40,327 bases of DNA from Luminiphilus sp. (GTDB lineage: Bacteria > Planctomycetota > UBA1135 > UBA2386), in assembly GCA_041236755.1 (NCBI GenBank), contig JBERSB010000309.1:1-40327 (forward strand). Direction: 5' to 3'. The notes beneath the pieces were generated by a model. It did not search any database. It saw only the letters and a program-made list of their open reading frames with translations, and had not been told where the DNA came from. Position 1 is the first letter of the stretch, and every line of letters begins with the position of its first letter. Made by a program: the position numbers and the translations under genes. Of the stretch, positions 6,844 to 38,367 are shown piece by piece.

Positions 6844-6852
6844 GGGATCGTC

Positions 6853-6872
6853 CCGGCGCCCCGAACGGCGCC
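6853..6872 (+). terminator. Small hairpin after the helicase stop (weak terminator candidate)
   Basis: cggcgcc (6853-6859) and ggcgccg (6866-6872) form a 7-bp stem with a 6-nt loop, 10 nt after the stop at 6843. There is no U-tract. A second hairpin, cggctg-cct-cagccg (6890-6904), spans the stop of the convergent ABC gene. Confidence 0.25.
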
Positions 6873-6897
6873 GCTGGACGGACCGCTCTCGGCTGCC

Positions 6898-7656: not shown

Positions 7657-7794
7657 CGGGGCATCTTGTCGGAGGCAGGCGGGTTGCGCCAGCCCGGGAT
7701 CGGTCGCTGCGCGCGGCCCCGCGACATTCTCCGCCCCTGAACCGCGACCCGTCGGGTATCGTTGTGCCGCCTGACCGTGCGCGCCTCCTCCCTG

Positions 7795-8481: not shown

Positions 8482-8541
8482 CCGGGCGCGCGCCGCGGGG
8501 CGCAGCATGAGGCAGGGCGGCGAGTAGGCGCGCCACAGCAT

Positions 8542-9744
8542 TCACGGCTGGGGGAACGACACGCCCAGCTCTGCGAGGATCCGGGCGAAGCGCTCGTACA
8601 TGCGCTCCCAGCGCCACGTCTCCCGCACCCACGACGCCGCAGCGGCGCCGGCGGCGCGGGCGGCGGCCGGATCGTCGAACCAGCGCGCGACGCCCTCGAT
8701 GGTCGCGTCCGCGCCGTCGGCGACGCACACGCAGGCCTCCGGAACGTCGCCGAGGCCCTGCGAGGCCTGCGGGGACGCGACCGTTGGCAACGCCATGCTC
8801 ATCGCCTCGAGCACCTTGTTCTGCACGCCGCGCGCCAGCCGCAACGGCGCGATCGCGACCGCGGCGCGGTCGAAGTAAGGGGGTGTGGTCTCGACCCGGC
8901 CCGTGACCGTGACGCCGTCGCGGCCGTGCAGCGCTTGCACGCGCGGCGCGGGCTTGCTGCCGACGACGAGCAGCTGCGCCGCGGGGAAGCGGCGACGCAG
9001 GGTGGGCCAGCAGGACTCGACGAACCAGCAGACGCCGTCGACGTTAGGCTCGTAGTCCATCACGCCGGTGAACACCGCGGTGTGCGGGTCCCTCGCGTCG
9101 TCGCCGGCCGACGCGAAGTGCGCGACGTCCACGCCGTTGGGCAGCACGTCGGGCACGACGCCTGCGATGCGCTGTTCGAACAGCTCCTTCTCCACCTCGC
9201 TGACGACCAGAGACCGGTCGAAGGCGCGCGCGACGCGGTCTTCGAACGCGAGCAGGCGCTCGGCCTCGCGCGCGTAGATCCAGCGCCCGAGCGGTCCGGC
9301 GACCTCCGCGTACTGACGCCACTTGTCGGAGTCGAGCTCGGCGAACTGCATGACCTTCGCGCCGCCTGCGTGGTCGAGGGCGTACTGCGCCATCGACGAC
9401 GAGTAGACGTAGACGTGGTCCGGCGGCGTCGCGCACCCGCGCGACATCGCGGCCTGCACACGACTGTGCCGGAAGAACGGCAGCGTCAGCGGTTCGCCGG
9501 TCGCGAGGCCGCGCATGCTGGTGATCTTCCTGAGCCCGCGCGAGAGCGTCGGCGCGACGACCTCCGCACATCTGCTGTCCAGAAACCCGACAGCGTCGGC
9601 GTCCCTCGCCTCCTCCTGGAAGCAACCGACGTAGACCTCGGCACCGCGCTCCAGGATGTGTTGCAGGAAGTGCCAGGTCGTGATGCGGTCGCCGCGATCG
9701 GGTGGCCACGGCACGCGCTGGCACAGGAAGACGACGCGGGGCAT
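8542..9744 (-). CDS. Glycosyltransferase, GT4/GT-B family (resembles the PEP-CTERM/EpsH1-associated sugar transferase type)
   Basis: The N-terminus MPRVVFLCQRVPWPPDRGDRITTWHFLQHILERG and the C-terminal GVQNKVLEAMSMALPTVASPQA are typical of GT-B group 1 enzymes. ATG 9744 is preferred over GTG 9762. Confidence 0.8.
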   Translation of the reverse strand: MPRVVFLCQRVPWPPDRGDRITTWHFLQHILERGAEVYVGCFQEEARDADAVGFLDSRCAEVVAPTLSRGLRKITSMRGLATGEPLTLPFFRHSRVQAAMSRGCATPPDHVYVYSSSMAQYALDHAGGAKVMQFAELDSDKWRQYAEVAGPLGRWIYAREAERLLAFEDRVARAFDRSLVVSEVEKELFEQRIAGVVPDVLPNGVDVAHFASAGDDARDPHTAVFTGVMDYEPNVDGVCWFVESCWPTLRRRFPAAQLLVVGSKPAPRVQALHGRDGVTVTGRVETTPPYFDRAAVAIAPLRLARGVQNKVLEAMSMALPTVASPQASQGLGDVPEACVCVADGADATIEGVARWFDDPAAARAAGAAAASWVRETWRWERMYERFARILAELGVSFPQP

Positions 9745-9820
9745 GGGCGGGCTTTCGGGCACGGAACGCGGTCAAGGTCGCGCGCGGAACGCCCCGATAC
9801 AAGGGCTGGAGCGCAACCAC

Positions 9821-10693: not shown

Positions 10694-10799
10694 CGGAGCA
10701 TCGCCCGGCGCAGCAGGCCTGCTCGCGGGCCGAGGATGCAGGCCGCGGCGGCGTCGCTGTTGAGACAGTGGGCGGTTCCGGCTAGGAACGTCGACGACC

Positions 10800-11588
10800 A
10801 TGAGCACGACGCGACCACTGCTGGGAGTCATCCACCTCGGCGCCTCGCCCTCGGCGGCGCGCCACCGCTCCGTGCGCGAGGTCATGAGCACGGCGCTGGC
10901 CGACGCCGAGGCCTTCGCGAGCGCGGGCTTCGACGGGTTGGTCGTCGAGAACTTCGGCGACGCGCCGTTCCACCGCGGCACATACGACGACCCGGTGCCG
11001 CCCGACGTCGTCGCGAGCGTCGCGGTGGCGGCCGACCGCGTGGCGCGCGCCACCGGGCTGCCGATCGGCGTCAACTGCCTGCGCAACGACGGCGTCGCAG
11101 CGTTCGGCGTCGCCGCCGTCACTTCGGCGCGCTGGGTGCGCGTCAACGTGTTGACCGGCGCCTACGTGACCGACCAAGGCGTCATCGCGGGCGAGGCGGC
11201 GCGCCTCGCGGCCTACCGGCGGCAGCTGCGCACCGACGCGCTGTTGCTCGCCGACCTGTTGGTCAAGCACGCAGCGCCGCTCGCGGCGTTCGACCTCGCG
11301 ACCGGCGCCAAGGATCTCGCCGAGCGCTCGGGCGCCGACGGCGTGGTGCTGTCGGGCGCCAGGACCGGCCGGCCCGTGGACGTCGCGCAGCTGGACGCGG
11401 TCCGGGACGCCGTAGGGGCGTTCCCGATCTGGATCGGCTCGGGCCTCGACGCGGACAACGCAGCGGAGCTGTGGCCGCGCTGCGACGGGGCGATCGTCGG
11501 CACCTGGTGCAAGGAGGACGGCGACGCGGCCCGGCCCGTGGACGTCGAGCGCGCGCGGCGGCTGCGGGCGGCGTGTCCGCCGGAGTAA
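10800..11588 (+). CDS. BtpA/SgcQ family TIM-barrel protein
   Basis: LLGVIHLGASP...DAEAFASAGFDGLVVENFGDAPF, GVNCLRND and WIGSGL match the remembered BtpA family pattern. Confidence 0.8.
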   Translation: MSTTRPLLGVIHLGASPSAARHRSVREVMSTALADAEAFASAGFDGLVVENFGDAPFHRGTYDDPVPPDVVASVAVAADRVARATGLPIGVNCLRNDGVAAFGVAAVTSARWVRVNVLTGAYVTDQGVIAGEAARLAAYRRQLRTDALLLADLLVKHAAPLAAFDLATGAKDLAERSGADGVVLSGARTGRPVDVAQLDAVRDAVGAFPIWIGSGLDADNAAELWPRCDGAIVGTWCKEDGDAARPVDVERARRLRAACPPE

Positions 11589-11621
11589 GGGCGCGGGCGG
11601 CCACGGGCCGATAACAGAGGC

Positions 11622-12635
11622 GTGAAGGTCCTGTTCCTGACTCCCGCGCCGACGAAGCTGCACATGGGCGGCTTTGCGACCGTCGCGCGCTACCGCGACG
11701 GCCTGCAGCAGCTGGGCCACGTCTGCGAGCTCTACGGACCTTCGGGCGAAGGCGGACACGAGCAGCCGCTGGCCGCTGCGATCGGCCGGTTCCAGCCGGA
11801 CATCGTGCACGCGCACGACGCCAGGCGCTGCGGCGTGCAGCTGCTCGGCTCTCGCACGCCGTGGGTGATCTCGATCGCCGGCGAGGACCTGCACCAGGAC
11901 GTGCTCGACAGCAAGCACGGCCCGATCGTCTGCGAGGTCATGCGACGCGCGCACCGCGTGCTCGTCCCGAGCGAGCACGCCGCGAGCCTCGTCGCGGAGC
12001 GCGTGCCCGGCGCGGCCGACAAGGTCGACGTCGTCGCGCGCGCCGCCACCGCGCTGCCGACCGACGGCACGGACCTGCGCCGGTCGCTCGGCATCCAGCG
12101 CCAGCGCTTCCTGGTGTTCTTGCCGGGCGGCATCCGGCCCGTGAAGGGGCAGCACCGCGCGATCTCGGCGATCCCGAAGCTGCGCGCAGCCGGCGTCGAC
12201 ATCGAGATGATCATCGCCGGCGCCTCGCAGGACGAGGCCTACGCCGCGCGCGTGCGGGCCGAGGCCGACGACACGCCCGGCGTGCGCGTGATGCCCTCGC
12301 TGGCGCGCGAGCGCATGGGCGCTGCCTACGCGGACTCCGACGTCGTGCTCAACACCTCGCTCTCCGAGGGTGCCGCGCCGACGATCCTGGAGGCCGGCAT
12401 GCTCGGCCGGCCGGTGATCGCGTCGGACATCCCGGGCAACCGCGCGCTCATCCGGCACAACGAGACGGGGCTGCTGTTCGCCGACGAAAAGAGCATGGCC
12501 AAGCAGATCCTGGCCCTCTACCGCAACCGCACGGCCGCGGGCACGCTGGGCGTGCGCGTGCGGGAGGACTTCATGCGCCGCTTCAGCGCGGACCGTGAGG
12601 TCGCGGGGCTGCTGTCGTCCTACGCCGCCGCCTGA
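11622..12635 (+). CDS. Glycosyltransferase family 1 (GT-B)
   Basis: GTG start preceded by the agagg SD at 11616-11620. MKVLFLTPAP...GGFATV is at the N-terminus, and the C-terminal motif is SLSEGAAPTILEAGMLGRPVIASDIPGNRALIRHNETGLLF. Confidence 0.85.
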   Translation: MKVLFLTPAPTKLHMGGFATVARYRDGLQQLGHVCELYGPSGEGGHEQPLAAAIGRFQPDIVHAHDARRCGVQLLGSRTPWVISIAGEDLHQDVLDSKHGPIVCEVMRRAHRVLVPSEHAASLVAERVPGAADKVDVVARAATALPTDGTDLRRSLGIQRQRFLVFLPGGIRPVKGQHRAISAIPKLRAAGVDIEMIIAGASQDEAYAARVRAEADDTPGVRVMPSLARERMGAAYADSDVVLNTSLSEGAAPTILEAGMLGRPVIASDIPGNRALIRHNETGLLFADEKSMAKQILALYRNRTAAGTLGVRVREDFMRRFSADREVAGLLSSYAAA

Positions 12636-12638
12636 GGT

Positions 12639-14243: not shown

Positions 14244-14304
14244 AATGTTGGTCGGCCCCTCCCTGGAGCGGCTCCGCCCAAGTCTACCGTCGGCCCGCTG
14301 CGGC

Positions 14305-15072
14305 TCAACGGCGCACGCGGGTGTGTCGGTAGAGCAGGACCAAGATCAGGCCGACGATTCCGCCGACCAGGATCGGGGTCCAGAGCCGCTCCCCGAGCGA
14401 CTGCGGCGGCTCGGCCACCCGCGCGAACGTCAGGGTCGAGAGCCAGCGGTCGAACTCGGGCCGCCACCGCGAGAAGTCGTCGGGAGCGGCCGCGAACGAC
14501 AGCGTGATCTGCTGCTTGGCGGTGGGGGCGTGCACGTCCAGGCTGACCCTGGTGGCGGCGGGCGCTCTGGGCGTGGTCGTGCGCGTTGCCACGATGCACT
14601 CCACGCCCTGGGTCCCGAGGCGCTCGAGGTGGACGTCGGTCAGCTCGTGCGAGGCGTCGTTCTGTTCGCCGTGCTCGCGCCAGAGCTGCCGGAGGGTGTC
14701 CGCGTAGTCGTCGCCGACGTGCCACTCGTCCCGCTGCTCGAACACGTAGAGCCACGGTCCGGAGAAGTCGCCCTGGAGCCACTGGTCGACCGGCCCGACA
14801 CCGTAGTAGCCGCGCGGCGAGGCCAGGAGCAGCACCGGCGGCGCGTCCGGGTGGTCGGCGAGCCGCGCCGCCTCGCCAGGCGCGATCTGCCGCCAGCCCG
14901 CGGGCAGGTCGAGCTGGAACGTGCGGTTGTAGTTGCGGAACGTCGCCGTCGGCGCGTCCGCGGAGCTCGCGGCGGGAGCCTCGCGCACGGCGGCGGGCGA
15001 GGTCTGGGCGCGCGGCGCGGTCGTCGTCAGGAGCGCGGCCGCGGCGAGCGCGGCGAGGAGGCGTTCACGCAT
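14305..15072 (-). CDS. Hypothetical exported protein with a C-terminal membrane anchor
   Basis: This is the in-frame ATG at 15072 within the spurious 951-aa ORF. MRERLLAALAAAALLTTTAPRAQT is a signal peptide, and the C-terminal TM is LWTPILVGGIVGLILVLLY followed by RHTRVRR. Codon usage matches neighbouring genes, and no family was recognised. Confidence 0.65.
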   Translation of the reverse strand: MRERLLAALAAAALLTTTAPRAQTSPAAVREAPAASSADAPTATFRNYNRTFQLDLPAGWRQIAPGEAARLADHPDAPPVLLLASPRGYYGVGPVDQWLQGDFSGPWLYVFEQRDEWHVGDDYADTLRQLWREHGEQNDASHELTDVHLERLGTQGVECIVATRTTTPRAPAATRVSLDVHAPTAKQQITLSFAAAPDDFSRWRPEFDRWLSTLTFARVAEPPQSLGERLWTPILVGGIVGLILVLLYRHTRVRR

Positions 15073-19492: not shown

Positions 19493-20173
19493 ATGCTGCA
19501 GATGCGCTGGCAAGACCTGCTGTTCCTGCACTGGCCCGTGGAGCCTGCCGCGGTGCGCCCGCACCTTCCTGAGGGCCTGACGCTCGACACCTTCGACGGC
19601 CGGGCGTGGCTCGGCGTCGTGCCGTTCACGATGGCGTCGACCCGCTTCCGCTGGTTGCCGCCGATGCCGACCGCGCGCTGCTTCCCCGAGTGCAACCTGC
19701 GCACCTACGTGCGCTGCGGCGACCGCGCGGGCGTGTGGTTCTTCAGCCTGGACGCGCACAGCCGCCTCGCGGTCGAAGGCGCGCGGATCGGCTTCGGGCT
19801 GCCCTACTTCGTGGCCGACATGGCGAGCCAGAGAGACGGCGACCGCATCGTCTACCGCAGCCGCCGCGTCGACCGCCGGGGACCGCCCGCGACCTTCGAG
19901 GGCAGCTGGCGTGCCGCAGGGGCGTGGCGCACCGCCGCGCCGGGGTCGCTCGAGCACTTCCTCGTCGAGCGCTACAGCCTGTTCGCGCTGCGCCGCGGCC
20001 GCCTCGTGCGCGGCGACGTGGCGCACCCGCCGTGGCAGCTCGCAGCAGCGGACGTCGAGCTCCAGCGCTGCGACATGGCGCGCCTGCTGGACCTGCAGCT
20101 CCGAGGTCCGCCGGTCTCGGCGCTCGCGACGCAGCCGATCGACGTCGAGGCGGCGAGGCCGTTGCCGGTGTAG
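19493..20173 (+). CDS. DUF2071 (YqjF-like) family protein
   Basis: WQDLLFLHWPVEPAAVRPHLPEGLTLDTFDGRAWLGVVPFTM and CNLRTYV match the remembered DUF2071/YqjF N-terminal signature. Confidence 0.75.
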   Translation: MLQMRWQDLLFLHWPVEPAAVRPHLPEGLTLDTFDGRAWLGVVPFTMASTRFRWLPPMPTARCFPECNLRTYVRCGDRAGVWFFSLDAHSRLAVEGARIGFGLPYFVADMASQRDGDRIVYRSRRVDRRGPPATFEGSWRAAGAWRTAAPGSLEHFLVERYSLFALRRGRLVRGDVAHPPWQLAAADVELQRCDMARLLDLQLRGPPVSALATQPIDVEAARPLPV

Positions 20174-20326: not shown

Positions 20327-20581
20327 ATGAGCGCAGACGAAGTGCGACAGGACCTGCTGGCCTGGATCGTCGCGAACGCCACGCAGCCGTGCGCGATCGA
20401 GGACATCCACTCCGACGTGAGCATGTGCGACGCGGGCTACATCGACTCGATCCGCGGCGCGGACCTGCTCGCGCACATCGAGCGCCGCTACGCGGTGCGG
20501 GTCGAGGAGGTCGAGCTGGTCGGCAGGCTCCAGACGCTGGACGAGCTGGTGGCGCACGTCGCAGGAGGCAGTCATGAGTGA
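20327..20581 (+). CDS. Acyl/peptidyl carrier protein, DltC-like
   Basis: 84 aa. The candidate phosphopantetheine Ser41 lies in DAGYIDSIRGADLLAHIERRY (codon 20447-20449), similar to the DltC LLDSMGTV helix-2 context. The stop overlaps the next start by 8 nt. Confidence 0.8.
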   Translation: MSADEVRQDLLAWIVANATQPCAIEDIHSDVSMCDAGYIDSIRGADLLAHIERRYAVRVEEVELVGRLQTLDELVAHVAGGSHE

Positions 20582-21593
20582 ACTCGCGAAGCACGCGTTC
20601 GAGGTCGGGATGCCTCACATGGTCACCGACCAGCTCTCCGAAGTGGAGCTGCTGAAGCTCGTCGGCGACTTCCAGTGGCGGCAGATCGCGGCCTCGCTGG
20701 GCCGCTCGACCAAGGACCTGCAGAACAGCGCGGGCGACCGCCTCTACGCGTCGTTCATCAACATCGAGCTAGACTTCGGCTCGGGTGACGGCGCGGACAT
20801 CGGGCGCTTCGAGGAAGGGGACCGCGTCGAGGTCGCCGGGACCACCCGCTTCTACGGCCGCCAGTTCGTCGAGGGCTGGAGCGTGCTCGACCGCGCGGCG
20901 CTGGACGAAGACAGGGTCCGCACCGTGTCCTCGCGCGCGGACCTGGACGGCGTCGGCCGGCCTTGGGTCTACATGACCAACGCGTTCGTCGGCCGCGTCT
21001 CGGGCAACCTCCGCCTCAAGACCTACGCGCCCGACGGCGTGCAGGACGGCGCGGTCGCCACCACCGACGACAAGCCCGCAGGCATCACGGCGCACGAAGA
21101 CGCGCTGCAGCGCGGCCTGCAGCTGCCCGCGGGCGCGCGCCCGCTGCCGTGCACCGACGACGGGCCCGTGCTCTACCAGGTGCTCCCCGAGAGCGACCTG
21201 AACGGCGCCGGCCTGCTCTACTTCGCGCGCTACGTCGCGATGATGAACTACGCCGAGCGCGTGCAGAGCCTGGACCGCATGGCGCCGCCCATGTCGGCGC
21301 AGCTGAGCCGGCACCTCGCGACCAGGCGCCGCAGCCTCTACTACTTCGCCAACGCGCCGGCGAACGAGCGCGTGCGCGTGTTCTGCACGCCCGCGTTCGT
21401 GCCCGCAGGCAGCGCGGGCTCGGACCCGCTGTCCACGGACTTCGGCAGCGTCGTGCATCGCCACGAGCTCTACCGGGACTCGGACGGCGCTCTGATGGCG
21501 ATGTCGCTCGTCGAGAAGGCGCTGCGCGTCCCCAACCGCCTGAAGGGCACGCTCGCCGAGGTGCGGCGCATGCTGGCGCGGCTCGGCTGCTGA
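20574..21593 (+). CDS. Double hot-dog-like protein, LnmK / Pnap_2097-type putative acyltransferase-decarboxylase (assignment by recollection)
   Basis: 339 aa with an AGGAGG SD at 20563-20568. The N-terminal half is GMPHMVTDQLSEVELLKLVGDFQWRQIA. The C-terminal half, YQVLPESDLNGAGLLYFARYVAMMNYAERV, is a classic hot-dog thioesterase-type D-x-N-x-x-G...Y motif. Confidence 0.6.
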   Translation: MSELAKHAFEVGMPHMVTDQLSEVELLKLVGDFQWRQIAASLGRSTKDLQNSAGDRLYASFINIELDFGSGDGADIGRFEEGDRVEVAGTTRFYGRQFVEGWSVLDRAALDEDRVRTVSSRADLDGVGRPWVYMTNAFVGRVSGNLRLKTYAPDGVQDGAVATTDDKPAGITAHEDALQRGLQLPAGARPLPCTDDGPVLYQVLPESDLNGAGLLYFARYVAMMNYAERVQSLDRMAPPMSAQLSRHLATRRRSLYYFANAPANERVRVFCTPAFVPAGSAGSDPLSTDFGSVVHRHELYRDSDGALMAMSLVEKALRVPNRLKGTLAEVRRMLARLGC

Positions 21594-21681
21594 GGGGCTC
21601 GGGCGCCGGCGACTGCGCGGTTGGCCGCCGAATGCGCTGGAGTCGCCCGCGCGGCGCCGCAGAATGGCGGCTGCCTGAGGG

Positions 21682-23088
21682 ATGCTGTTCTCCGAGCCAC
21701 TCTTCCTGTTCGGCTTCTTGCCGCTGGTGCTCTGCGTCTACTACGCCGCACCCGCGCGCGCGCGCATCGGGCTGCTCGCCGCCGCGAGCTACACGTTCTA
21801 CGGCTGGTGGGACTGGCGCTTCCTGCTGCTGATCGCGTTCACGACTGCAGTCGACTTCAGCTGCGCGCGCCTGATGGCCGGCCGCGAGCGCAAGCAGCGA
21901 CGGCCGCTCCTGCTGGTCTCGCTGGTCTCGAACCTGTCGCTGCTCGGCTTCTTCAAGTACTTCGGCCTGGGCGTCGAGACCGCGGACCACGTGGCGCGTT
22001 GGTTCGGCGGCGGCCTCGACCAGGGCCTGCTCGACTTCGAGGTCGTGCTGCCGGTCGGCATCTCGTTCTTCGTCTTCCAGAGCCTCTCCTACACGGTCGA
22101 CGTCTACCGGGACGCGGTGCAGCCGAGTCGGTCGCTGTTGGTCTACGCCTGCTACGTGTCGCTGTTCCCGCAGCTCGTCGCCGGGCCGATCGTGCGCTAC
22201 CGGCAGCTCGAGCAGGACCTGCGCGCGCCGGTGCTGACCGACGAGAAGCGCTACGCGGGCATCCAGCTGTTCTTGTTCGGGCTCGCCAAGAAGGTCGTCT
22301 TCGCGGACTCGCTCGCGCTGTTCGCCGAGGCGGTGTTCGACGCGCCCGAGATCGCGTCGCTGCCCGCCCCGCTCGTACTGGTCGGCGTGCTCGCCTACAC
22401 GTTCCAGATCTACTTCGACTTCTCGGGCTACTCGGACATGGCCGCCGGCATCGGCCACATGCTCGGCTTCCGCTTCCCGAAGAACTTCGACTCGCCCTAC
22501 AAGTCGGCGTCGATCACCGAGTTCTGGCAGCGCTGGCACATCTCGCTGTCGACGTGGCTGCGTGACTACCTGTTCCTGTCGCTCGGCGGCAACGCCCGGG
22601 GCGTGGCGCGAGCCTGCGCCAACGTCTTCGTGACGATGCTGCTCGGCGGGCTCTGGCACGGTGCCGGGTGGAACTTCGTGCTCTGGGGCGGCTATCACGG
22701 CGCGCTGCTCGCGATCGAGCGTGCGCTCGGCGCGCGCAACCCGCTGCTGCGGTTGCCCAAGGCCGCGCAGCGCGCGGTGTGCTTCCTGCTCGTCGCGTTC
22801 GGGCTGGTGTTCTTCCGCGCGGCGACGCTCGCCGACGGGGCAGCCGTGCTGTCGGCGTTGGGCAACTGGGACGTCGTCGGCCACGTGCCGCTGCTGCACG
22901 GGGTCTTCGGCCTCGAACACCTGGTCTTCGGCGCGAGCGCCTTGGTGGTCTTCTTCTGCAGGAACAGCTGGCAGGTCTCGACGCGGCCGTCGGTCGGCAA
23001 GACCGCAGGCCTGCTGCTGCTGCTCTTGGTGACGCTCGGCTTCCTGCTCGGCTCCACGAACCACCCGTTCCTCTACTTCCAGTTCTGA
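21682..23088 (+). CDS. Membrane-bound O-acyltransferase (MBOAT), DltB/AlgI family
   Basis: 468 aa and multi-TM. The N-terminus is MLFSEPLFLFGFLPLVL, with the signature ITEFWQRWHISLSTWLRDYLF and the conserved His region GGLWHGAGWNFVLWGGYHG. Confidence 0.92.
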   Translation: MLFSEPLFLFGFLPLVLCVYYAAPARARIGLLAAASYTFYGWWDWRFLLLIAFTTAVDFSCARLMAGRERKQRRPLLLVSLVSNLSLLGFFKYFGLGVETADHVARWFGGGLDQGLLDFEVVLPVGISFFVFQSLSYTVDVYRDAVQPSRSLLVYACYVSLFPQLVAGPIVRYRQLEQDLRAPVLTDEKRYAGIQLFLFGLAKKVVFADSLALFAEAVFDAPEIASLPAPLVLVGVLAYTFQIYFDFSGYSDMAAGIGHMLGFRFPKNFDSPYKSASITEFWQRWHISLSTWLRDYLFLSLGGNARGVARACANVFVTMLLGGLWHGAGWNFVLWGGYHGALLAIERALGARNPLLRLPKAAQRAVCFLLVAFGLVFFRAATLADGAAVLSALGNWDVVGHVPLLHGVFGLEHLVFGASALVVFFCRNSWQVSTRPSVGKTAGLLLLLLVTLGFLLGSTNHPFLYFQF

Positions 23089-24350
23089 TGAGCACGAACG
23101 ACCAGCACGACCCGCTGCACCGTCGCCACGTCCGGATCTTCGCCGGGGTGTGGCTCGTGCTGGTCGTGCTGTGGCTGTTGCCCGAGCCGGCTGCGTGGAG
23201 CGCGCCGCACCGCGGCTGGGAGACGGCCCTGGTCAGCGGCGTCGTCGACAAGCGGCGCGAGGTCGAGGTGCGCACGGCGCCGTTCGCGGCGCGCTCCAGC
23301 TGGGAGGGCACGGCGACCGGCGACCTCAGCTACCTGTTCGACCTGCCGCACCTCGACATGCCGCGGGCGCAGACGTTCCACACCGACGAGTACGGGTTCC
23401 GCAACCCGCCCGGAACGTCGGCGAGCAACCGCGACGTGGTCGTGGTGGGCAACTCGTGCGCGGTCGGCTCGTCGGTGCGGGACGAGGAGACCCTCTCCGG
23501 TCGGCTGCGCGCGCTCGGCGTCGCGGCGACGGACTCCGGCGGCTTCGGCCTGCAGGCGTTCCTCCAGGACCCGCGGTGGCAGCAGCCGCCGCCGAAGAGG
23601 GTCGTGCACTACGTCGACGAAGCGTCGCTGCTGCCCCCGCTGCTGCGCGAGGACCTGCCCGCGCTCGACCTGCCCGCGTTCGAGACCCGCGAGGAATACG
23701 AGGCTTGGATCCGTCGCGAGGTCGCGTCGCTCGACCGGACCGAGGAAGGGGTCGGCAGCGACGACCTGCCGTCGTGGCTCCGCTGGTTGCCGTCCAACGA
23801 CGCGCAGCAGCGGCTCAAGGCGGACCTCGCCGCGCGGCAGACCCTGATCGCAGGCGTGTTCGCGTACCTCGTGCCGCGCGCCGCGCACGCGCTCGGCTTG
23901 CCCACGTTCTTCGACGCGGCGCTCCTGCACGTCGACGAGCCGTCGGGGCAGGTCTTCTACCGGCCCTCGGCTGCGCGCTACCTGGATCCCGCGCAGCTGC
24001 AGCAGGCGCTGCAGAGCGTGGATCTGCTGGCCGGGACGTTCCAGGCCGCTGCCCAGCTGCTCGAGGCGCGCGGCACGCGGCTGATCGTGCTGGTGTGCCC
24101 CAACAAGGAGCTGGTCTACCGCGACCTGATCCCAGCGCTCGCCGACGTCGACACCGGCGCCGTGCTGACCCGGCTGGACGAGCGCTTGACCGCGCTCGGC
24201 GTGCCGCACGTCGACGCGTGGGCCGTGTGCCGGCGCGCGCGGCAGGAGCAGCCCGACGCGCCGCTGTTCTTCGGCGACGACACGCACCCGACGCCGCGCT
24301 TGCAGGACCTGCTGGCGCAGCAGGTGGCGGAGATCGTAGCCGGTAGGTAG
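23088..24350 (+). CDS. DltD-like membrane-anchored SGNH/GDSL-fold protein (extracytoplasmic acyl-transfer partner of the MBOAT)
   Basis: The ATG overlaps the MBOAT TGA (TGATG at 23086-23090). It has an N-terminal TM (IFAGVWLVLVVLWLL), a block-I-like VVVVGNSCAVGS, LIVLVCPNKELVYRD, and a C-terminal DxxH (FFGDDTHPTP). Confidence 0.7.
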   Translation: MSTNDQHDPLHRRHVRIFAGVWLVLVVLWLLPEPAAWSAPHRGWETALVSGVVDKRREVEVRTAPFAARSSWEGTATGDLSYLFDLPHLDMPRAQTFHTDEYGFRNPPGTSASNRDVVVVGNSCAVGSSVRDEETLSGRLRALGVAATDSGGFGLQAFLQDPRWQQPPPKRVVHYVDEASLLPPLLREDLPALDLPAFETREEYEAWIRREVASLDRTEEGVGSDDLPSWLRWLPSNDAQQRLKADLAARQTLIAGVFAYLVPRAAHALGLPTFFDAALLHVDEPSGQVFYRPSAARYLDPAQLQQALQSVDLLAGTFQAAAQLLEARGTRLIVLVCPNKELVYRDLIPALADVDTGAVLTRLDERLTALGVPHVDAWAVCRRARQEQPDAPLFFGDDTHPTPRLQDLLAQQVAEIVAGR

Positions 24351-29925: not shown

Positions 29926-30618
29926 CTAGGGCCGCTTCCCGCGCTCGTCGCTGCGCGCCGGTGCCAACTTGTACGGCGAGCGGTAGTGCTCGCGCAGCTG
30001 CTCCCAGCGCTCGCGCCACTCGGGCGGTCGGTCGTCGGACGCGACGCTCCGCTCGACCTCGTAGAAGTAGCTCTTGAAGGTCGTCGGCACGACGCCCGCC
30101 TGCTGCATCCGGCGGAGCGCAGGGCCGACGTTGGGCTCGTTGGAGAACACGCAGTCCTCCAGCAGGAACACCTCGAACCCCATCTCGAGCAGGCCCAGGC
30201 ACGACTGCAGCACACAGACATCGGTCTCCGCTCCGGCGACCACCAGCTGGTCGACGCCCATCTCGCGCAGCGCGGTGCGGATCGCCGGTTCGCGGCAGCA
30301 GTCGAAGGTTCGCTTCAGGTGGCGGACGCCGTGCTGCGGCCAGACGGCCTCGAGCCGCGCCGGCAGTTCGCCGTTGCGCTCCGTCGGCACCTCGAAGGTC
30401 GCGAGCACCGGCGCGCCGGTGATGCTCGCGTGCACCAACAGCTGCTCGAGGCGCTGCAGGACCGGCTCGGAGTCGCCGTGCATCATCGCGACGAAGCTCG
30501 GTTGCGCGTCGATGAGGACGACGCCTACGCGGCCGTGCTCCACGCGGAGCGGGCCGGGCGCTCTTGTGTGGCAGGCCGCGAGCGATGCCAGCAGCAGCGC
30601 GAGGATCGAGGTTCGCAT
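29926..30618 (-). CDS. Isochorismatase-family cysteine hydrolase with a lipoprotein signal peptide
   Basis: The lipobox is [26 protein letters not shown] and the catalytic-Cys context [14 protein letters not shown] are present. Confidence 0.8.
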
Positions 30619-30722
30619 CGGCCCGATCCTCGTCGCGGCGCAGCGGCGTGCAAGCGAGCGCTGCGATTTGGCCGCGCCGCGCGCTAAGCTGCGCAGAGCC
30701 TTCTGAGAGGCTCCGTAGCCAG

Positions 30723-31793
30723 ATGAACCGCACCTGCATCGTCCCCGTCTTCGCGGCGCTCGCCGCGCTCGCTGCGTCCCCCGCGCTCCTTTCGCAGCAG
30801 CTGCCGGACCCCGACGGCAAGCCCGCCGACATGAGCAAGCCGGTCCAGGTCTTCGTGATCATGGGCCAGTCCAACACGCTCGAGATGGGCAAGGTCAAGG
30901 GCGCTGACGGCTCGCTCGAGCACGCGGTCAAGGAGGAGGGGCTCTACCCCTTCATGGTCGACGACGCGGGCGCGTGGACGACGCGCCAGGACGTGCGCAA
31001 CGTGCACGTGATGGGCAGCGGCGGCCCCGGCAAGACACGCCAGATGCGCAACGACTGGCTCACGGTCTCTGGCAGGAAGGTCGGCATCGAGCAGGGCATC
31101 GGCCACCAGCTCGGCGCGGCGCTCGACGCGCCCGTATTGATCCTCAAGAGCTCGATCGGCAACCGCAGCCTCGGCTGGGACATCCTGCCGCCGGGCTCGG
31201 AGTCGTACGAGTTCACCGACCCCAAGGACGGTAAGACCTACGTCTACGCCGGCTTCGGCGAGAGCCCGGATCGGTGGGAGAAGGGCACCGAACCGAAGCC
31301 GATCGGTTGGTCGGCGGGCCTGCAATACAAGGGAGACGTCGCGCGCGCCAAGGCCGTGCTGAAGGACCTTGGCAAGTACTACCCCGGCGCGACCAAGTTC
31401 GAGGTCAAGGGCTTCCTGTGGTGGCAGGGCGACAAGGACCGCTACAACGCCGGCCACGCCCAGAAGTACGGCGAAAACCTCGGGCGGCTGGTGGCGGCGC
31501 TGCGCAAGGAGTTCGACGCGCCCGACGCCAAGTTCGTCTGCGCGACGCTCGGACAGACCGACAAGGACGCGGCCAAGGGCAACGAGAAGGCGATCCTCGA
31601 GGGCATGATGGCGCTCAGCGACGCCGCGCAGAACCCGGCGCTGAAGGGCTCGGTCGCGACGGTCTACACGCACCCGCTGAGCATGGGCTCGGCCTCCAAC
31701 GCCCACTACGGCGGCAACGCCAAGACCTACATGAACGTCGGCCTCGCCATGGGCGCGGCGATGGTCGAGCTGCTCCAGAAGGCGGGCCGCTAG
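30723..31793 (+). CDS. Secreted sialate O-acetylesterase-like carbohydrate esterase (DUF303/SGNH-like)
   Basis: Start ATG 30723 with a signal peptide (MNRTCIVPVFAALAALAASPA). Motifs are VFVIMGQSNTLEMG, ILKSSIGNRSL and FLWWQGDKD. Its stop overlaps the stop of the convergent sulfatase gene (CTAG at 31790-31793). Confidence 0.75.
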   Translation: MNRTCIVPVFAALAALAASPALLSQQLPDPDGKPADMSKPVQVFVIMGQSNTLEMGKVKGADGSLEHAVKEEGLYPFMVDDAGAWTTRQDVRNVHVMGSGGPGKTRQMRNDWLTVSGRKVGIEQGIGHQLGAALDAPVLILKSSIGNRSLGWDILPPGSESYEFTDPKDGKTYVYAGFGESPDRWEKGTEPKPIGWSAGLQYKGDVARAKAVLKDLGKYYPGATKFEVKGFLWWQGDKDRYNAGHAQKYGENLGRLVAALRKEFDAPDAKFVCATLGQTDKDAAKGNEKAILEGMMALSDAAQNPALKGSVATVYTHPLSMGSASNAHYGGNAKTYMNVGLAMGAAMVELLQKAGR

Positions 31794-33205
31794 CGACCGC
31801 TGGCGGCGCGGGTCCGCGGCATCAGCTCGGGAGCGCGCTTCAGCCACGCCTGGAGCAGACGCTCCATTCGGGCCTTCTGCTCCGGCTCGCGTGCGGCGAG
31901 GTCGACGTGCTCGCCGGCGTCGCTCGCGAGGTCGTAGAGCTGAGACGTGCGCGTCTCGTGGTCGTAGACGAGCTTGAGCGATCCCTGGCGCAGCGCGCTG
32001 GTCGGCTTGCGCTCGAACGCGCCGTCGTGGAACCGCGCGTAGTCCGGAGCGTGCCAGCAGAGCGCGCGGTCGCGATCCAGGTCGCCGCCGGTCAGCAGCG
32101 GGGTCAGGTCGAGACCGTCCAGACCGCTCGGCGCGCGCGCGCCGGCGGCCTCGCAAGCGGTCGGGAACAGGTCCAGCAGCGAGACCGGCGCGTCGTGGAC
32201 CGCGCCCGCGCGCGTTACTCCCGGCCAGCGGATGACCATCGGCACGCGGATGCCGCCCTCGTAGATGGACCCCTTGCTGCCTCGAAGTCCGTTGTTGCCG
32301 CGTTCGCGCGCGCCGCCGTTGTCCGACGCGAAGATCACGACGGTGTCGTCTTCGAGGCTGCGCGCTCGCAGGTCTTTGAGCAGCGCGCCGACGGCCGCGT
32401 CGAGATCGGCGCACATGGCTGCGTGGATTGCGTCGCGACCCTCCAGTCCGCGAGCCTCTGCGGCGCGCAGCGACGCCGCCTTCGCTTCGCGCGGGCCGTG
32501 CACGCTGAAGTAGGGCAGGTAGAGGAAGAACGGACGGCCGTCGTCGCGGTCCAGGAACGCCTGCGCCTGTTGGGTGACGAAGTCTGACAGGTGCGTGCCG
32601 TCCGAGACCGGCACCGACGGCACCGTCGAGAAGTCGGGGTAGAAGTAGCGCTTGTCGCCGCTCGGGCTCCGCGTCTGGATCGCCTCCTCGAAGCCGCGCG
32701 CGCGCGGGTGCCACTGGGACACGCGGTTGCCGTCGTGGCCGAGGTGCCACTTGCCGAAGCAGCCGGTCCGGTAGCCTGCGTCCCGCAGGATCTCGGCGAG
32801 CGTCGGCAGCGAAGAGACCAGGCGTCGGCGGTTGGCGGGCGGGTCCAGCAGCCGCGCGCTGGCGTGGCGCAGCTCGGGGTCGTTGACGCAGTGGATGCCG
32901 TGTGCGAGCACGTCGCGGCCGGTCAGCAGGCTCGCCCGTGAGGGCGCGCAGAGCGCGGCGGCGGCGTAGGCCTCGGTGAAGCGCGCCCCCGACGCCGACA
33001 GCGCGTCGATCGCAGGCGTCAGGTGGTCCTCGTTGCCGTAGCAGCCGAGGTCCGTCCAGCCCAGGTCGTCGGCGACGATCAGGACGACGTTCGGCGGTCC
33101 GTGCTGCGTCTCGGAGGTCTGCGTGAAGACCCCTGAAGCCGTCAGGAAGAACGTAGCGGTTGCGAGGGCCGCGGCGAGGCGGAGTATGAAGCGTGGCGAG
33201 CGCAT
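31790..33205 (-). CDS. Sulfatase (formylglycine-dependent arylsulfatase family), secreted
   Basis: It has a signal peptide, VVLIVADDLGWTDLGCYG, and the formylglycine motif CAPSRASLLTGR. Confidence 0.92.
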   Translation of the reverse strand: MRSPRFILRLAAALATATFFLTASGVFTQTSETQHGPPNVVLIVADDLGWTDLGCYGNEDHLTPAIDALSASGARFTEAYAAAALCAPSRASLLTGRDVLAHGIHCVNDPELRHASARLLDPPANRRRLVSSLPTLAEILRDAGYRTGCFGKWHLGHDGNRVSQWHPRARGFEEAIQTRSPSGDKRYFYPDFSTVPSVPVSDGTHLSDFVTQQAQAFLDRDDGRPFFLYLPYFSVHGPREAKAASLRAAEARGLEGRDAIHAAMCADLDAAVGALLKDLRARSLEDDTVVIFASDNGGARERGNNGLRGSKGSIYEGGIRVPMVIRWPGVTRAGAVHDAPVSLLDLFPTACEAAGARAPSGLDGLDLTPLLTGGDLDRDRALCWHAPDYARFHDGAFERKPTSALRQGSLKLVYDHETRTSQLYDLASDAGEHVDLAAREPEQKARMERLLQAWLKRAPELMPRTRAASGR

Positions 33206-33285
33206 CCATGGGCAGTTTGCCAGCTGGCGCCGCCGCGCGTACGATTTGACGCCGCACTCGTCCCGATCAGGAGGATTTCCACACC

Positions 33286-33909
33286 ATGCAGGTCCGCAGT
33301 AACAGCATCCAACCCGACGCGCCGATCGGCGCCGCGTTCGCGTTCGGCCGCCCCGACCCCGAGACCCACATCGCGCTGTCCGACAACCGTAGCCCGCACC
33401 TCGCTTGGACCGGCGCGCCCGACGGGACCCAGAGCTTCGCGGTGTTGTGCATCGACCCCGACGTCCCGACGGTCGGCGACGACGTCAACCAGGAGGGCCG
33501 CGTCGTACCGGCGAGCCTGCCGCGGACGGACTTCGAGCACTGGGTGCTGGTCGACGTCGCGCCTTCTTGCACCGAGCTCGCCGAAGGGTCGTGTGGCGAT
33601 GGCGTCGTGGCGCGCGGCAAGCAGGAGCCGCCGGGCCCAGAGGGCTCGCGGCAGGGCGTCAACGATTACACCGCCTGGTTCGCGGGCGACGCCGACATGT
33701 CCGGCACCTACAAGGGCTACGACGGACCGTGCCCGCCGTGGAACGACGAGCTCGTGCACCACTACACCTTCACCGTCTACGCGCTCGACGTGCCGAGGCT
33801 GGAAGTGTCCGGCGACTTCACCGCCGCCGACGTGAAGGCCGCGATGGAGGGGCACGTGCTCGCGAGCGCCGCGATCACGGGGACCTACACCAACAACCCG
33901 GACCGGTAG
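33286..33909 (+). CDS. YbhB/YbcL family Raf-kinase-inhibitor-like (PEBP) protein
   Basis: An AGGAGGA SD lies upstream. Motifs are SPHLAWTGAPDGTQSFAVLCIDPDVP, FEHWVLVD, GYDGPCPP and HHYTFTVYALD. Confidence 0.88.
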   Translation: MQVRSNSIQPDAPIGAAFAFGRPDPETHIALSDNRSPHLAWTGAPDGTQSFAVLCIDPDVPTVGDDVNQEGRVVPASLPRTDFEHWVLVDVAPSCTELAEGSCGDGVVARGKQEPPGPEGSRQGVNDYTAWFAGDADMSGTYKGYDGPCPPWNDELVHHYTFTVYALDVPRLEVSGDFTAADVKAAMEGHVLASAAITGTYTNNPDR

Positions 33910-37845: not shown

Positions 37846-37890
37846 CGTTCTCCCTTGGCCGCGGGCGGCTGCGGCCTACAGTCGCCGACG

Positions 37891-38367
37891 ATGACCGAAC
37901 GCCGCAAGCGCCCTGTCCAAGCCAGCCGCGTCGAGATGACGGAGATCGTCATGCCCAACGACGCCAACCCGCTCGGCAACGCCATGGGCGGCCGCGTCAT
38001 GCACTGGATCGACGTCTGCGCGGCCGTCTGCGCGGGCAGGCACGCGCGCACGCCGGTGGTCACGGCCAGCGTCGACAACGTCGACTTTCTCAACCCGGTG
38101 CCCGTGGGCAGCGTGATCGTGCTGCTCGCCTCGGTGAACTTCACCGGCAGGACCTCGATGGAGGTCGGGGTCAAGGTCTGGCAGGAGGAGCGGCCGACCG
38201 GCCACCGCAACCACGTCGCATCGGCCTACCTGACGTTCGTGTCGCTGGATCCCGAGACGCGCAAGCCGCGCGTCGTGCCGATCGTGGAGCCCGAGACCGA
38301 AGAAGAGCAGCGGCGCTTCCGTGAAGGCGACGCGCGGCGAAAGGCGCGGATCTCGCAGCGGGGGTGA
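37891..38367 (+). CDS. Acyl-CoA thioesterase (hot-dog fold, YciA/Acot-like)
   Basis: Start ATG 37891 (MTERRKRP). Motifs are EIVMPNDANPLGNAMGGRVMHWID, ASVDNVDFLNPVPVG and GRTSMEVGVKVW. Confidence 0.88.
   Translation: MTERRKRPVQASRVEMTEIVMPNDANPLGNAMGGRVMHWIDVCAAVCAGRHARTPVVTASVDNVDFLNPVPVGSVIVLLASVNFTGRTSMEVGVKVWQEERPTGHRNHVASAYLTFVSLDPETRKPRVVPIVEPETEEEQRRFREGDARRKARISQRG

Follow-up and report, generated by a model that had tools for sequence, protein, structure and literature searches.

LnmK of leinamycin biosynthesis (PDB 4HZN/4HZO/4HZP, 6X7L-P) is a bifunctional methylmalonyl-CoA:ACP acyltransferase/decarboxylase with a double hot-dog fold: it decarboxylates (2R)-methylmalonyl-CoA and passes propionyl to a dedicated carrier, LnmL, whose gene accompanies its own. 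Its Tyr62 is the nucleophile that forms the acyl-O-enzyme intermediate, its Phe65 stabilises the enolate, and the published roles of LnmK-type acyltransferase/decarboxylases all belong to polyketide biosynthesis (PMC11350588). Polyketide context is a trait of the characterised LnmK pathway, not of the HMM-defined family TIGR04098. Membrane transfer of small acyl groups has been described in two other kinds of system. In the Dlt pathway (DltA-DltC-DltB-DltX-DltD), which D-alanylates teichoic acids, the carrier is loaded by the adenylating ligase DltA, and the MBOAT DltB is without a C-terminal shuttle and works with the separate microprotein DltX. In PatA/AlgI-type MBOAT-SGNH systems, acetyl-CoA is described as the direct donor, with no carrier taking part, and the C-terminal FxYxxF of the MBOAT is the acyl shuttle (PMC12148441).

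The locus analysed here lies in a contig of 40,327 bp, which we call the window, and has features of all three systems. Like LnmK, its central protein is a double hot dog above the TIGR04098 cutoff with the Tyr and the D-x-N-G...Y-F core, and a carrier is encoded beside it; it differs from LnmK in several ways, as identity is only ~20%, the score puts it at the family's margin, the contig encodes neither an HMG-CoA synthase nor a KS or PKS, and its downstream consumer is apparently an MBOAT instead of a condensing enzyme. As in Dlt, the carrier resembles DltC/PCP-type carriers, and alignment of the MBOAT with DltB pairs their catalytic His residues. However, the predicted loader is a hot-dog acyltransferase/decarboxylase, the MBOAT has its own FxYxxF, which makes a DltX microprotein unnecessary, the place of DltD is taken by an AlgX-type SGNH partner, and the hosts are diderm phyla. 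With PatA/PatB, AlgI/AlgJ/AlgX and WssH/WssI the locus shares the MBOAT catalytic His, the fused C-terminal FxYxxF and a predicted SGNH partner of the AlgX family immediately downstream, but here a carrier and its predicted loader are in the same operon. The AlgI/PatA papers that our literature search returned make no mention of an acyl carrier protein, and searches for LnmK with MBOAT, TIGR04098, MBOAT with ACP and SGNH, and AlgI with ACP found no earlier description of such a locus.

Layout of the four-gene operon

Table 1. Genes and sequence features of the operon (positions in the window)
Feature	Position	Strand	Basis
Stand-alone carrier protein, 84 aa	20327..20581	+	Pfam PP-binding E 6.6e-8
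Shine-Dalgarno AGGAGG of the LnmK-like gene	20563..20568	+	Direct sequence reading
LnmK-family double hot-dog protein, 339 aa	20574..21593	+	TIGR04098, LnmK PDB match, model, Foldseek
Active-site strand R56-L57-Y58-A59-S60-F61	20739..20756	+	Pairwise alignment with LnmK
D208-L-N210-G211-A-G-L-L-Y216-F217	21195..21224	+	Cap (N-terminal) of second hot-dog helix
MBOAT, 468 aa, PatA/AlgI type	21682..23088	+	Pfam MBOAT E 2.3e-26
Predicted catalytic His326 in L-W-H-G	22651-22662	+	DltB alignment
C-terminal acyl-shuttle motif F-L-Y-F-Q-F, residues 463-468	23068-23085	+	FxYxxF match
Membrane-anchored AlgX-type SGNH protein, 420 aa	23088..24350	+	Pfam ALGX 53.5 bits vs cutoff 26.5
Candidate triad Ser in VVGNSC, Ser123	23442-23459	+	Invariance in 7 homologs
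Candidate triad D397-D398-T399-H400	24276-24287	+	Invariance in 7 homologs

The operon spans 20327..24350 in the order carrier protein, LnmK-like protein, MBOAT and AlgX-type SGNH protein (Table 1). The LnmK-like ORF starts with ATG and has a GC3 of 0.94, and a search of 5.8 billion proteins returned 367 homologs (best E 3e-223), which indicates that it is a real gene. The carrier gene runs, stop codon included, 8 nt into the start of the LnmK-like gene. The sequence AGGAGG, separated by 5 nt from the ATG of the latter, is located inside the carrier gene's 3' end, indicating translational coupling of the carrier and LnmK-like genes. Moreover, the MBOAT stop and the start of the SGNH protein overlap by 1 nt.

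The carrier would bear its phosphopantetheine on Ser41 (codon 20447-20449), within AGYIDSIRG, and carriers from 18 related loci keep a G-Y-[IVL]-D-S motif. The PDB sequences nearest to this protein are stand-alone PCP-type carriers and DltC carriers.

An earlier note on this DNA had stated that the only partners of the hot-dog protein are a carrier and membrane acyl-transfer proteins, with no PKS, KS or HMG-CoA-synthase gene nearby. Annotation bears this out: the partners are a PP-binding protein, an MBOAT and an extracytoplasmic AlgX-type SGNH protein, and across all 40,327 bp of the contig Pfam detected neither a ketosynthase, PKS or HMG-CoA synthase nor an adenylating (AMP-binding) enzyme. 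A hidden PKS context in the window is ruled out by this annotation of the entire contig.

The double hot-dog protein

The NCBIfam model TIGR04098 matched residues 10-310 of the LnmK-like protein with 128.9 bits (cutoff 100, E 2.1e-37). Clade-mates scored 107-126 bits and actinomycete LnmK types 245-299 bits; being far below the latter, the window protein and its clade-mates form a peripheral TIGR04098 subfamily. LnmK was the sole meaningful match among PDB sequences (E 4e-4). The AlphaFold model is confident (pLDDT 90.4, pTM 0.89), and its first seven Foldseek matches were all LnmK structures (E 1e-17 to 3e-15, TMq 0.73-0.75, TMt 0.81-0.83). Hence the LnmK-like double hot dog proposed in the earlier note agrees with family model, sequence, fold and the conserved Tyr, and the superposition on LnmK that it recommended gave TM 0.75/0.83 with Tyr58 equivalent to Tyr62 by alignment. 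The family assignment, which the note had left open, can now be given as this peripheral subfamily. The Pnap_2097 family (TIGR04099) was rejected as an assignment (83.8 bits vs cutoff 125).

Two segments, VGMPHMVTDQLSEVELLKLVGDFQW (residues 11-35) and ESDLNGAGLLYFARYVAMMNY (residues 206-226), had been read as the halves of a fused hot-dog dimer, and the model agrees. Each spans the cap and the beginning of one long central helix (H23-41 and H217-235) packed against a beta-sheet, and as modelled these helix segments are the two hot-dog halves.

Tyr58 (codon 20745-20747) is aligned opposite the nucleophile Tyr62 of LnmK, and R56, L57, Y58, A59 and S60 are invariant in 30/30 aligned clade members. 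Phe61 is aligned opposite Phe65, and clade members have Phe or Val at that site. The D-x-N-G...Y-F motif is conserved 100% in five of the five groups compared, as well as in LnmK (D213, N215, G216, Y221 and F222 in 4hzo chain numbering), which on these alignments makes it the core that the whole LnmK superfamily shares. At conserved positions near the active-site strand, however, the clade differs from LnmK by R56-L57 for P-T, E81 for F, E100-G101 for L-T and R219 for S; R229 departs from the actinomycete consensus, at a site outside the recovered LnmK fragment. Judging from the alignment, these clade-specific substitutions may mean that the substrate, or even the decarboxylase step, differs from that of LnmK.

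FatA/FatB thioesterases share the double hot dog and act on carrier-bound acyl groups, and acyl-ACP thioesterases were the second-ranked fold class. However, their superposition is far weaker (TM 0.5-0.67, rmsd 6-7 A), and no thioesterase family HMM matched. FatA/B-type thioesterases have their catalytic His in a DxNxH motif; the site of this His is Ala212 here and Val in LnmK. A plain thioesterase or dehydratase was rejected, as HMM, sequence and fold all match LnmK best, the Tyr is kept and thioesterase matches are far weaker; the earlier note had named such a simple enzyme as the outcome that would speak against its proposal, and neither structure nor HMM points there.

Another kind of enzyme has to be weighed here. 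The carrier could be loaded by another enzyme (FabD or an unlinked ligase), and the hot-dog protein could just turn malonyl-carrier into acetyl-carrier in the manner of MadA/YiiD or, in an editing variant, hydrolyse mis-loaded carrier as a type II thioesterase would. Hot-dog decarboxylases of ACP-bound substrates are indeed known (MadA/YiiD, PMC8666670; AmcE). The second place of acyl-ACP thioesterases among the fold classes fits such a role, and so does a relative (P0184) that is fused to a thioesterase domain. In addition, the position of Tyr58 is kept throughout the superfamily except in the PKS-fused group, where it is Leu, and hence the family evidently can lose the acyl-transfer residue. 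Within the clade, by contrast, the invariance of R-L-Y-A-S in 30 members would be surprising in an enzyme that could do without the acyl-Tyr step, TM values are 0.75-0.83 for LnmK against 0.5-0.67 for thioesterases, Ala212 occupies the site of the thioesterase His, and neither the operon nor the contig holds a loader gene. We regard a decarboxylase-only or editing enzyme as unlikely.

Membrane partners and related loci

The MBOAT aligns to DltB (6bug_C, E 2.7e-29) with H326 opposite DltB H336, and it scores 168 bits with the DltB model TIGR04091, whose cutoff is 375. The C-terminal FxYxxF is present in 12/12 MBOATs of cassettes of this kind, and also in the MBOAT of L134 (that of L136 is not included in these counts). 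We further found 80 metagenomic MBOATs, 35-47% identical to that of the window, none of which has an LnmK-like gene at a distance of up to 7 kb, and the closest relatives of cassette MBOATs were often non-cassette MBOATs. A dedicated, carrier-specific MBOAT subfamily was rejected on account of these 80 proteins, among which the cassette MBOATs are interleaved. Since cassette MBOATs form no distinct lineage, MBOAT sequence alone gives no signal of carrier use.

The fourth protein has an N-terminal helix (residues 9-29), and G121, S123, D397, D398, T399 and H400 are invariant in an alignment of only 7 homologs. Its model has a pLDDT of 64.6 overall and 80-96 across residues 280-420. With this model of moderate confidence, Foldseek returned nothing at E <= 1e-3; the best matches were nearly all SGNH/GDSL esterases, at non-significant E of 0.02-0.06. 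Support for the predicted SGNH fold comes from Pfam only. A three-seed HMM of this partner failed to generalise to other loci, and the ORFs adjacent to other MBOATs have weak or absent Pfam SGNH matches, with G-[NS]-S and DxxH motifs in most of them.

Neighbours of the hot-dog gene were surveyed by six-frame HMM searches of related loci, whose DNA is high in GC. The set comprises 30 loci from at least 5 phyla, 26 of the close clade and 4 of an intermediate clade (27-31% identity). Of these 30 loci, 25 have a carrier that is either adjacent or fused, and an adjacent carrier gene is found in 21/26 close-clade loci. Fusion of a PP-binding domain to the LnmK-like protein occurs in 8/10 extended relatives as well as in L032, L025 and L024, and some fusions of the extended relatives also carry hexapeptide/LbH or GNAT acyltransferase domains. 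In 13/30 loci (11/26 close-clade and 2/4 intermediate-clade) an MBOAT is encoded no more than 8 kb away, in at least 6 gene arrangements, and the phyla with this linkage are Planctomycetota, Acidobacteriota, Myxococcota, Thermodesulfobacteriota and Verrucomicrobiota. In unbiased neighbour clustering, MBOAT ranked first among recurring neighbours. The clustering recovered only MBOAT, carrier, KS-III and lineage-specific synteny, and gave no support for a methyltransferase, DUF2071 or sulfatase as conserved partner. The cassettes of L136 and L001 adjoin Wzz/Wzc-like and Wza genes, which points to a polysaccharide acceptor.

The linkage could still be a coincidence of neighbourhood, in which the MBOAT and SGNH protein perform ordinary acetyl-CoA O-acetylation and the pair of carrier and LnmK-like protein serves an unrelated pathway. 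In line with this, neither similarity nor the C-terminal motif sets cassette MBOATs apart from common carrier-free ones, and the published view has these MBOATs draw on acyl-CoA, with no carrier required (PMC12148441). By our rough guess, which was not computed, an MBOAT would be expected at a distance of <=8 kb from a random gene in ~1% of cases or less, against the 13/30 found. Moreover, the linkage recurs in at least 6 arrangements, at least 5 phyla and two clades that are 27-31% identical, and the genes of the window, L001, L136 and L032 are closely packed, their junctions being short or overlapping. A chance neighbourhood is therefore very unlikely in our judgement.

MBOATs are nearby in fewer than half of the related loci, and some loci carry the pair alone. 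In four of the 26 close-clade loci (L003, L010, L016 and L021) a FabH-type KS-III is directly beside the pair (NF006829 268 bits vs cutoff 249), and in L135, whose LnmK-like protein shares 42% identity with that of the window, the neighbours of the pair include a KS and a type I PKS. In actinomycetes, relatives are either parts of giant fused ORFs or have KS-III downstream. The earlier note had placed LnmK-type enzymes in polyketide beta-branching cassettes; they are not confined there, as clade-mates beside KS-III (4 loci) and in a PKS locus (L135) show. These neighbours, together with the exclusively polyketide roles published for the family, suggest a starter-unit module, in which the pair would make an acetyl- or propionyl-carrier primer for a KS-III or PKS elsewhere in the genome, and the MBOAT and SGNH protein would attach a longer acyl product or be functionally unrelated. 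However, no KS of any type is present on the 40-kb contig, the KS-III loci L010 and L016 have no other PKS/FAS genes, an MBOAT neighbour is almost three times as frequent as KS-III (11 vs 4 of 26), and the LbH and GNAT fusions point toward acyl transfer and away from condensation. Hence we consider a starter-unit function unlikely.

A possible acylation relay

We propose that 20327..24350 is one operon for a carrier-dependent acylation relay across the inner membrane, running from loading through the MBOAT to the SGNH protein, a reading that we judge evenly poised between right and wrong. It is based on computed evidence, namely families, folds, conservation of catalytic residues, operon structure, recurrent linkage and carrier fusions. 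Following the homology to LnmK, the double hot-dog enzyme would bind and decarboxylate a carboxylated acyl-CoA, with malonyl- and methylmalonyl-CoA as the likeliest candidates; the resulting acetyl or propionyl group would pass to Tyr58 and from there to the thiol of the carrier's phosphopantetheine at Ser41. From the gene linkage and the precedent of DltC and DltB, the acyl-carrier may then dock at the cytoplasmic face of the MBOAT, where His326 would catalyse transfer through the tunnel to the Tyr of FLYFQF. By analogy with the PatA/PatB mechanism, this shuttle would pass its acyl load on to Ser123 of the SGNH protein, which is anchored in the membrane and would esterify an extracytoplasmic polymer, probably a polysaccharide. 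Both transfers have precedents, from DltC to DltB and from PatA Tyr to PatB Ser (PMC12148441). The LbH and GNAT consumers found in fusion proteins likewise are group-transfer acyltransferases.

Several observations were counted against the relay: cassette MBOATs are no lineage of their own and such MBOATs normally use acetyl-CoA (PMC12148441), under half of the loci have an MBOAT, there are substitutions near the active-site strand, and for the SGNH fold of the fourth protein only Pfam gives support.

The four-gene operon suggests an undescribed bacterial route by which small acyl groups reach a cell-surface polymer. More specifically, it may represent a third class of MBOAT-SGNH envelope acylation, in which a PatA/AlgI-type MBOAT is fed not by acyl-CoA but by a carrier that an LnmK-family enzyme charges decarboxylatively from malonyl- or methylmalonyl-CoA; we advance this class tentatively, at slightly less than an even prospect. 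If it exists, two rules would be broken, that LnmK types are polyketide-only and that MBOAT-SGNH acylation outside Dlt is carrier-free and driven by acyl-CoA, and a protein-bound thioester would be able to feed the phosphopantetheine tunnel of PatA/AlgI-type MBOATs. The product would be a specific, possibly non-acetyl (e.g. propionyl) ester on a surface polysaccharide, and the decarboxylation-driven variant would offer a route to irreversible, chemically selective acylation. Unusual O-acyl decorations of the envelope would then be predicted in Planctomycetota, Acidobacteriota, Myxococcota and Verrucomicrobiota. Concomitantly, carrier and hot-dog protein would make up a portable 'short-acyl-carrier generator' for MBOAT, LbH, GNAT, KS-III and PKS consumers.

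The LnmK superfamily comprises ~450 clusters. It would on this proposal have a second, non-polyketide function, which is now masked by the annotation name 'LnmK family bifunctional acyltransferase/decarboxylase'.

Identity of the LnmK-like protein

The ORF that an earlier note had singled out as a double hot-dog protein lies exactly at 20574..21593 of the forward strand and starts with ATG. Its GC3 is 0.94, in a complete 40,327-bp NCBI metagenome-assembled contig of ~70% GC. Its assignment as LnmK-like held: it scored 128.9 bits on the NCBIfam model for LnmK family bifunctional acyltransferase/decarboxylases (TIGR04098; curated cutoff 100), and LnmK was the sole meaningful match in a PDB sequence search (E 4e-4). 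A Pfam search of the protein returned no matching model. An AlphaFold2 model computed with 30 homologs as input (pLDDT 90.4, pTM 0.89) contains the two fused hot-dog halves that had been proposed, with long helices at residues 23-41 and 217-235 and a beta-sheet round each. Both peptides quoted in that note are present (residues 11-35 and 206-226) and form the cap and first turns of these helices, one peptide per helix. In the structural comparison, the best seven Foldseek matches were all LnmK (E 1e-17 to 3e-15, TMq 0.73-0.75, TMt 0.81-0.83), and the next class was acyl-ACP thioesterases (TM 0.5-0.67, rmsd 6-7 A). The Pnap_2097 family (TIGR04099) was rejected at 83.8 bits against a cutoff of 125.

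LnmK decarboxylates (2R)-methylmalonyl-CoA; an enolate stabilised by Phe65 deprotonates Tyr62, which becomes propionylated and then hands propionyl to the carrier LnmL (PMC11350588, a 2024 review). In pairwise sequence alignment the catalytic Tyr position is retained, with Tyr62 on Tyr58 and Phe65 on Phe61 of the window protein. R56-L57-Y58-A59-S60 is unchanged in 30 clade members, and W35, Y58, N136, N145, L148, P153, D208-x-N210-G211, G213-L214, Y216-F217, Y220 and N260 form a core conserved in all collected LnmK-like sequences. Since the TIGR04098, PDB and Foldseek matches and the Tyr conservation all point to LnmK, a plain thioesterase or dehydratase, which would have overturned the original proposal, is rejected.

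The superfamily is small, with 453 clusters (50% identity, E <= 1e-3) among 1.84 billion representatives and 29 at E <= 1e-30. Within the family the window protein is peripheral: its clade reaches 107-129 bits on TIGR04098, against 245-299 for actinomycete LnmK types. Several residues that never vary in the clade differ from those of LnmK: Q34 replaces T, R56-L57 replaces P-T, E81 replaces F, F98 replaces S, E100-G101 replaces L-T and R219 replaces S. R229, which the recovered LnmK fragment does not cover, stands where the actinomycete consensus has Leu. Judged from the alignments, the charged substitutions caution against taking methylmalonyl-CoA for granted as substrate. In five of five Saccharopolyspora and Streptomyces loci (L027-L031, about 7300-14400) the catalytic Tyr position is Leu, which suggests that this subgroup has lost the acyl-Tyr step. 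In these loci a giant ORF of ~2,000 aa, presumably a PKS, begins with the LnmK-like domain; the domain of L027 reaches 121.6 bits with the Pnap_2097 model, slightly below cutoff.

The operon and its recurrence

As the earlier note had stated, the partners in the same unit are a carrier and membrane acyl-transfer proteins (MBOAT and AlgX-type SGNH). No terminator is predicted in the 88-nt gap between the LnmK-like and MBOAT genes, and a convergent exonuclease gene ends the unit. The absence of polyketide context was also borne out: Pfam searches of every substantial contig ORF found no KS, PKS or HMG-CoA synthase, nor any AMP-binding enzyme. The genes on either side of the cassette are unrelated to it, with housekeeping and carbohydrate-active functions.

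Features of the cassette and of the remaining contig
Feature	Position	Strand	Remarks
GT4 glycosyltransferases (two) and BtpA-family protein	8542..9771; 10764..11588; 11589..12635	-; +; +	8-12 kb upstream of cassette
DUF2071 protein	19493..20173	+	E 1e-72; weaker acetoacetate-decarboxylase-family match; 153 nt upstream of carrier gene
Carrier, 84 aa	20327..20581	+	Ser41 in GYIDS; stop overlaps LnmK-like ATG by 8 nt
AGGAGG	5 nt upstream of LnmK-like ATG	+	inside carrier 3' end
LnmK-like, 339 aa	20574..21593	+	TIGR04098, PDB and Foldseek matches
MBOAT, 468 aa	21682..23088	+	begins after 88-nt gap
AlgX-type SGNH, 420 aa	23088..24350	+	ATG and MBOAT stop have one base in common; Pfam ALGX 53.5 bits
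SASA-family carbohydrate O-acetylesterase	30516..31793	+	~6-9 kb downstream of cassette, with sulfatase
Sulfatase	31790..33484	-	
4HBT-family thioesterase	37846..38367	+	separate single hot dog; E 6.5e-19; near contig end, unlinked to cassette

The GT4 and BtpA-family region holds the sole glycan-synthesis genes, and the contig has no complete polysaccharide locus. The esterase, which removes O-acyl groups, may or may not be related to the cassette's polymer. A decarboxylase-fold DUF2071 neighbour beside a decarboxylating system is curious, though unconserved; it is kept in two near-identical contigs (L052, L053) and in no other related locus.

Relatives were drawn from species-representative genomes and annotated contigs, and neighbours were sought in all six-frame ORFs by HMMs seeded on database gene calls. 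Among 26 distinct close-clade loci (33-55% identity), 21 have an adjacent carrier gene and 11 an MBOAT within 8 kb of the LnmK-like gene. Of the five that lack a confident adjacent carrier, four make up a Myxococcota synteny group; the fifth, L134, gives only a weak 32-bit carrier match. The second clade (27-31% identical) gives the same picture: L032 (Verrucomicrobiaceae) has a compact operon of MBOAT, SGNH-like protein and carrier~LnmK-like fusion, L025 has such a fusion preceded by an SGNH homolog at the contig edge, and in L026 the LnmK-like gene is accompanied by a small carrier ORF and by an MBOAT in convergent orientation. L032 carries two MBOAT genes (5236-6657 and 12821-14236), ~6 kb apart on either side of the fusion. 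Overall, MBOAT linkage occurs in 13/30 loci, in at least six arrangements and in Planctomycetota, Acidobacteriota, Myxococcota, Thermodesulfobacteriota and Verrucomicrobiota, and MBOAT was the top recurrent family in unbiased clustering of all neighbours. A random gene would be expected to have an MBOAT as near as 8 kb in ~1% of cases or fewer, a rough guess rather than a calculation. A coincidental gene neighbourhood is very improbable.

A polysaccharide acceptor is hinted at by L136 and L001, where Wzz/Wzc-like and Wza polysaccharide export genes lie next to the cassette. In both loci (L001 1555-5123, an annotated Vicinamibacteria MAG; L136 6910-10694) a ~1,000-aa Hydrolase_3 (HAD) protein and a small class I methyltransferase flank the cassette.

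A putative acyl relay and known systems

According to our model, the LnmK-like enzyme would decarboxylate malonyl- or methylmalonyl-CoA and pass acetyl or propionyl through Tyr58 to the phosphopantetheine on carrier Ser41, as family membership and conserved residues suggest. Gene linkage and the DltC-DltB precedent suggest that the acyl-carrier would then serve MBOAT His326 and the Tyr of FLYFQF; by analogy with PatA/PatB, SGNH Ser123 would receive the group from this shuttle Tyr and deliver it to an extracytoplasmic polymer.

In Dlt systems, DltA loads DltC, and DltB is without a C-terminal motif; the microprotein DltX provides the FxYxxF Tyr shuttle to DltD. All other MBOAT-SGNH systems (PatA/PatB, AlgI/J/X, WssH/I) depend on acetyl-CoA and 'lack a similar carrier protein', and their FxYxxF is fused at the MBOAT C-terminus (PMC12148441, 2025). 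The window MBOAT aligns His326 on the catalytic His336 of DltB and itself ends in FLYFQF. Therefore the putative relay is of PatA/AlgI type in its membrane half and Dlt-like by its carrier, and its loader (LnmK-like, not DltA) belongs to a third kind. An FxYxxF ending occurs in 12/12 cassette MBOATs of the first locus set and in that of L134. In the SGNH partner a helix spans residues 9-29 at the N-terminus, and Ser123 and D397-D398-T399-H400 are invariant; its model is of moderate confidence only, and a fold search gave SGNH/GDSL esterases at non-significant E 0.02-0.06. These features are consistent with an SGNH transferase but do not prove it.

A reciprocal set, gathered with the MBOAT as starting point, comprised 80 metagenomic loci whose MBOATs share 35-47% identity with that of the window. 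An LnmK-like gene is absent within 7 kb in all 80, and only a single locus gives a weak carrier match; 75 of these MBOATs end in FxYxx[FYW]. Cassette MBOATs show 31-45% identity to the window MBOAT, an overlapping range, and their nearest relatives are often from the reciprocal set. Because of the missing LnmK-like neighbours, the overlapping identities and the intermixed relatives, the carrier/LnmK-like pair is an accessory module, present with a minority of MBOAT-SGNH pairs that are ordinary in other respects. Carrier use is compatible with this, since acyl-CoA and acyl-carrier offer the same phosphopantetheine arm, but the MBOAT sequence gives no positive sign of such use. A special MBOAT lineage marked by the pair is rejected on the 0/80 and the intermixed relatives.

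Each half of the system is already a known kind. Databases already list the protein under 'LnmK family', which means that this assignment is not new in itself. No description of the two halves combined was found in the searchable literature, and the 2025 mechanistic paper, the most recent one, has non-Dlt systems lacking carriers. The new element is the proposed LnmK-like role outside polyketides, linked to MBOAT.

Fusions and other contexts

Ten mid-distance relatives with extra length were scanned; in eight of them the LnmK-like domain is joined to a PP-binding domain in a fusion protein. Two (P0189, P0216) have an extra N-terminal hexapeptide-repeat (LbH) acyltransferase domain, in the order hexapeptide(LbH)~PP-binding~LnmK-like, and P0154 likewise but below the Pfam cutoff; P0248 is GNAT~PP-binding~LnmK-like, and P0184 is LnmK-like~PP-binding~thioesterase. 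As domain architectures, these fusions are independent evidence that the double hot dog acts on a cognate carrier, and show that the acyl-carrier can go to group-transfer acyltransferases as well as condensing enzymes. That the LnmK-like protein decarboxylates only, or edits, is quite unlikely.

The pair could instead be a primer module for a KS-III or PKS. An adjacent FabH-family KS-III is found in 4/26 close-clade loci (L003 2570-4141; L010 6492-7571, confirmed by NCBIfam; L016 1-744; L021 about 6643-7578), and one of the 26 (L135, 1-10324) places the LnmK-like gene among carriers, a KS and a type I PKS. We consider this explanation unlikely for the window. In L135, P0059 (close clade, 42% identical) has two PP-binding genes on one side and a 406-aa ketosynthase on the other, and the neighbouring PKS is of at least 1,667 aa; therefore the close clade serves polyketide-type pathways too. 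In L010 and L016, KS-III, carrier and LnmK-like genes form a compact unit with no further PKS/FAS genes nearby, and L003 has both KS-III and the MBOAT-ALGX pair. In the Myxococcota synteny group (L005, L008, L017, L050) the LnmK-like gene, without an adjacent carrier, neighbours an MMPL transporter, a TP_0789/DUF1329-like protein, a TonB-dependent receptor and a P450, a setting that may be lipid export.
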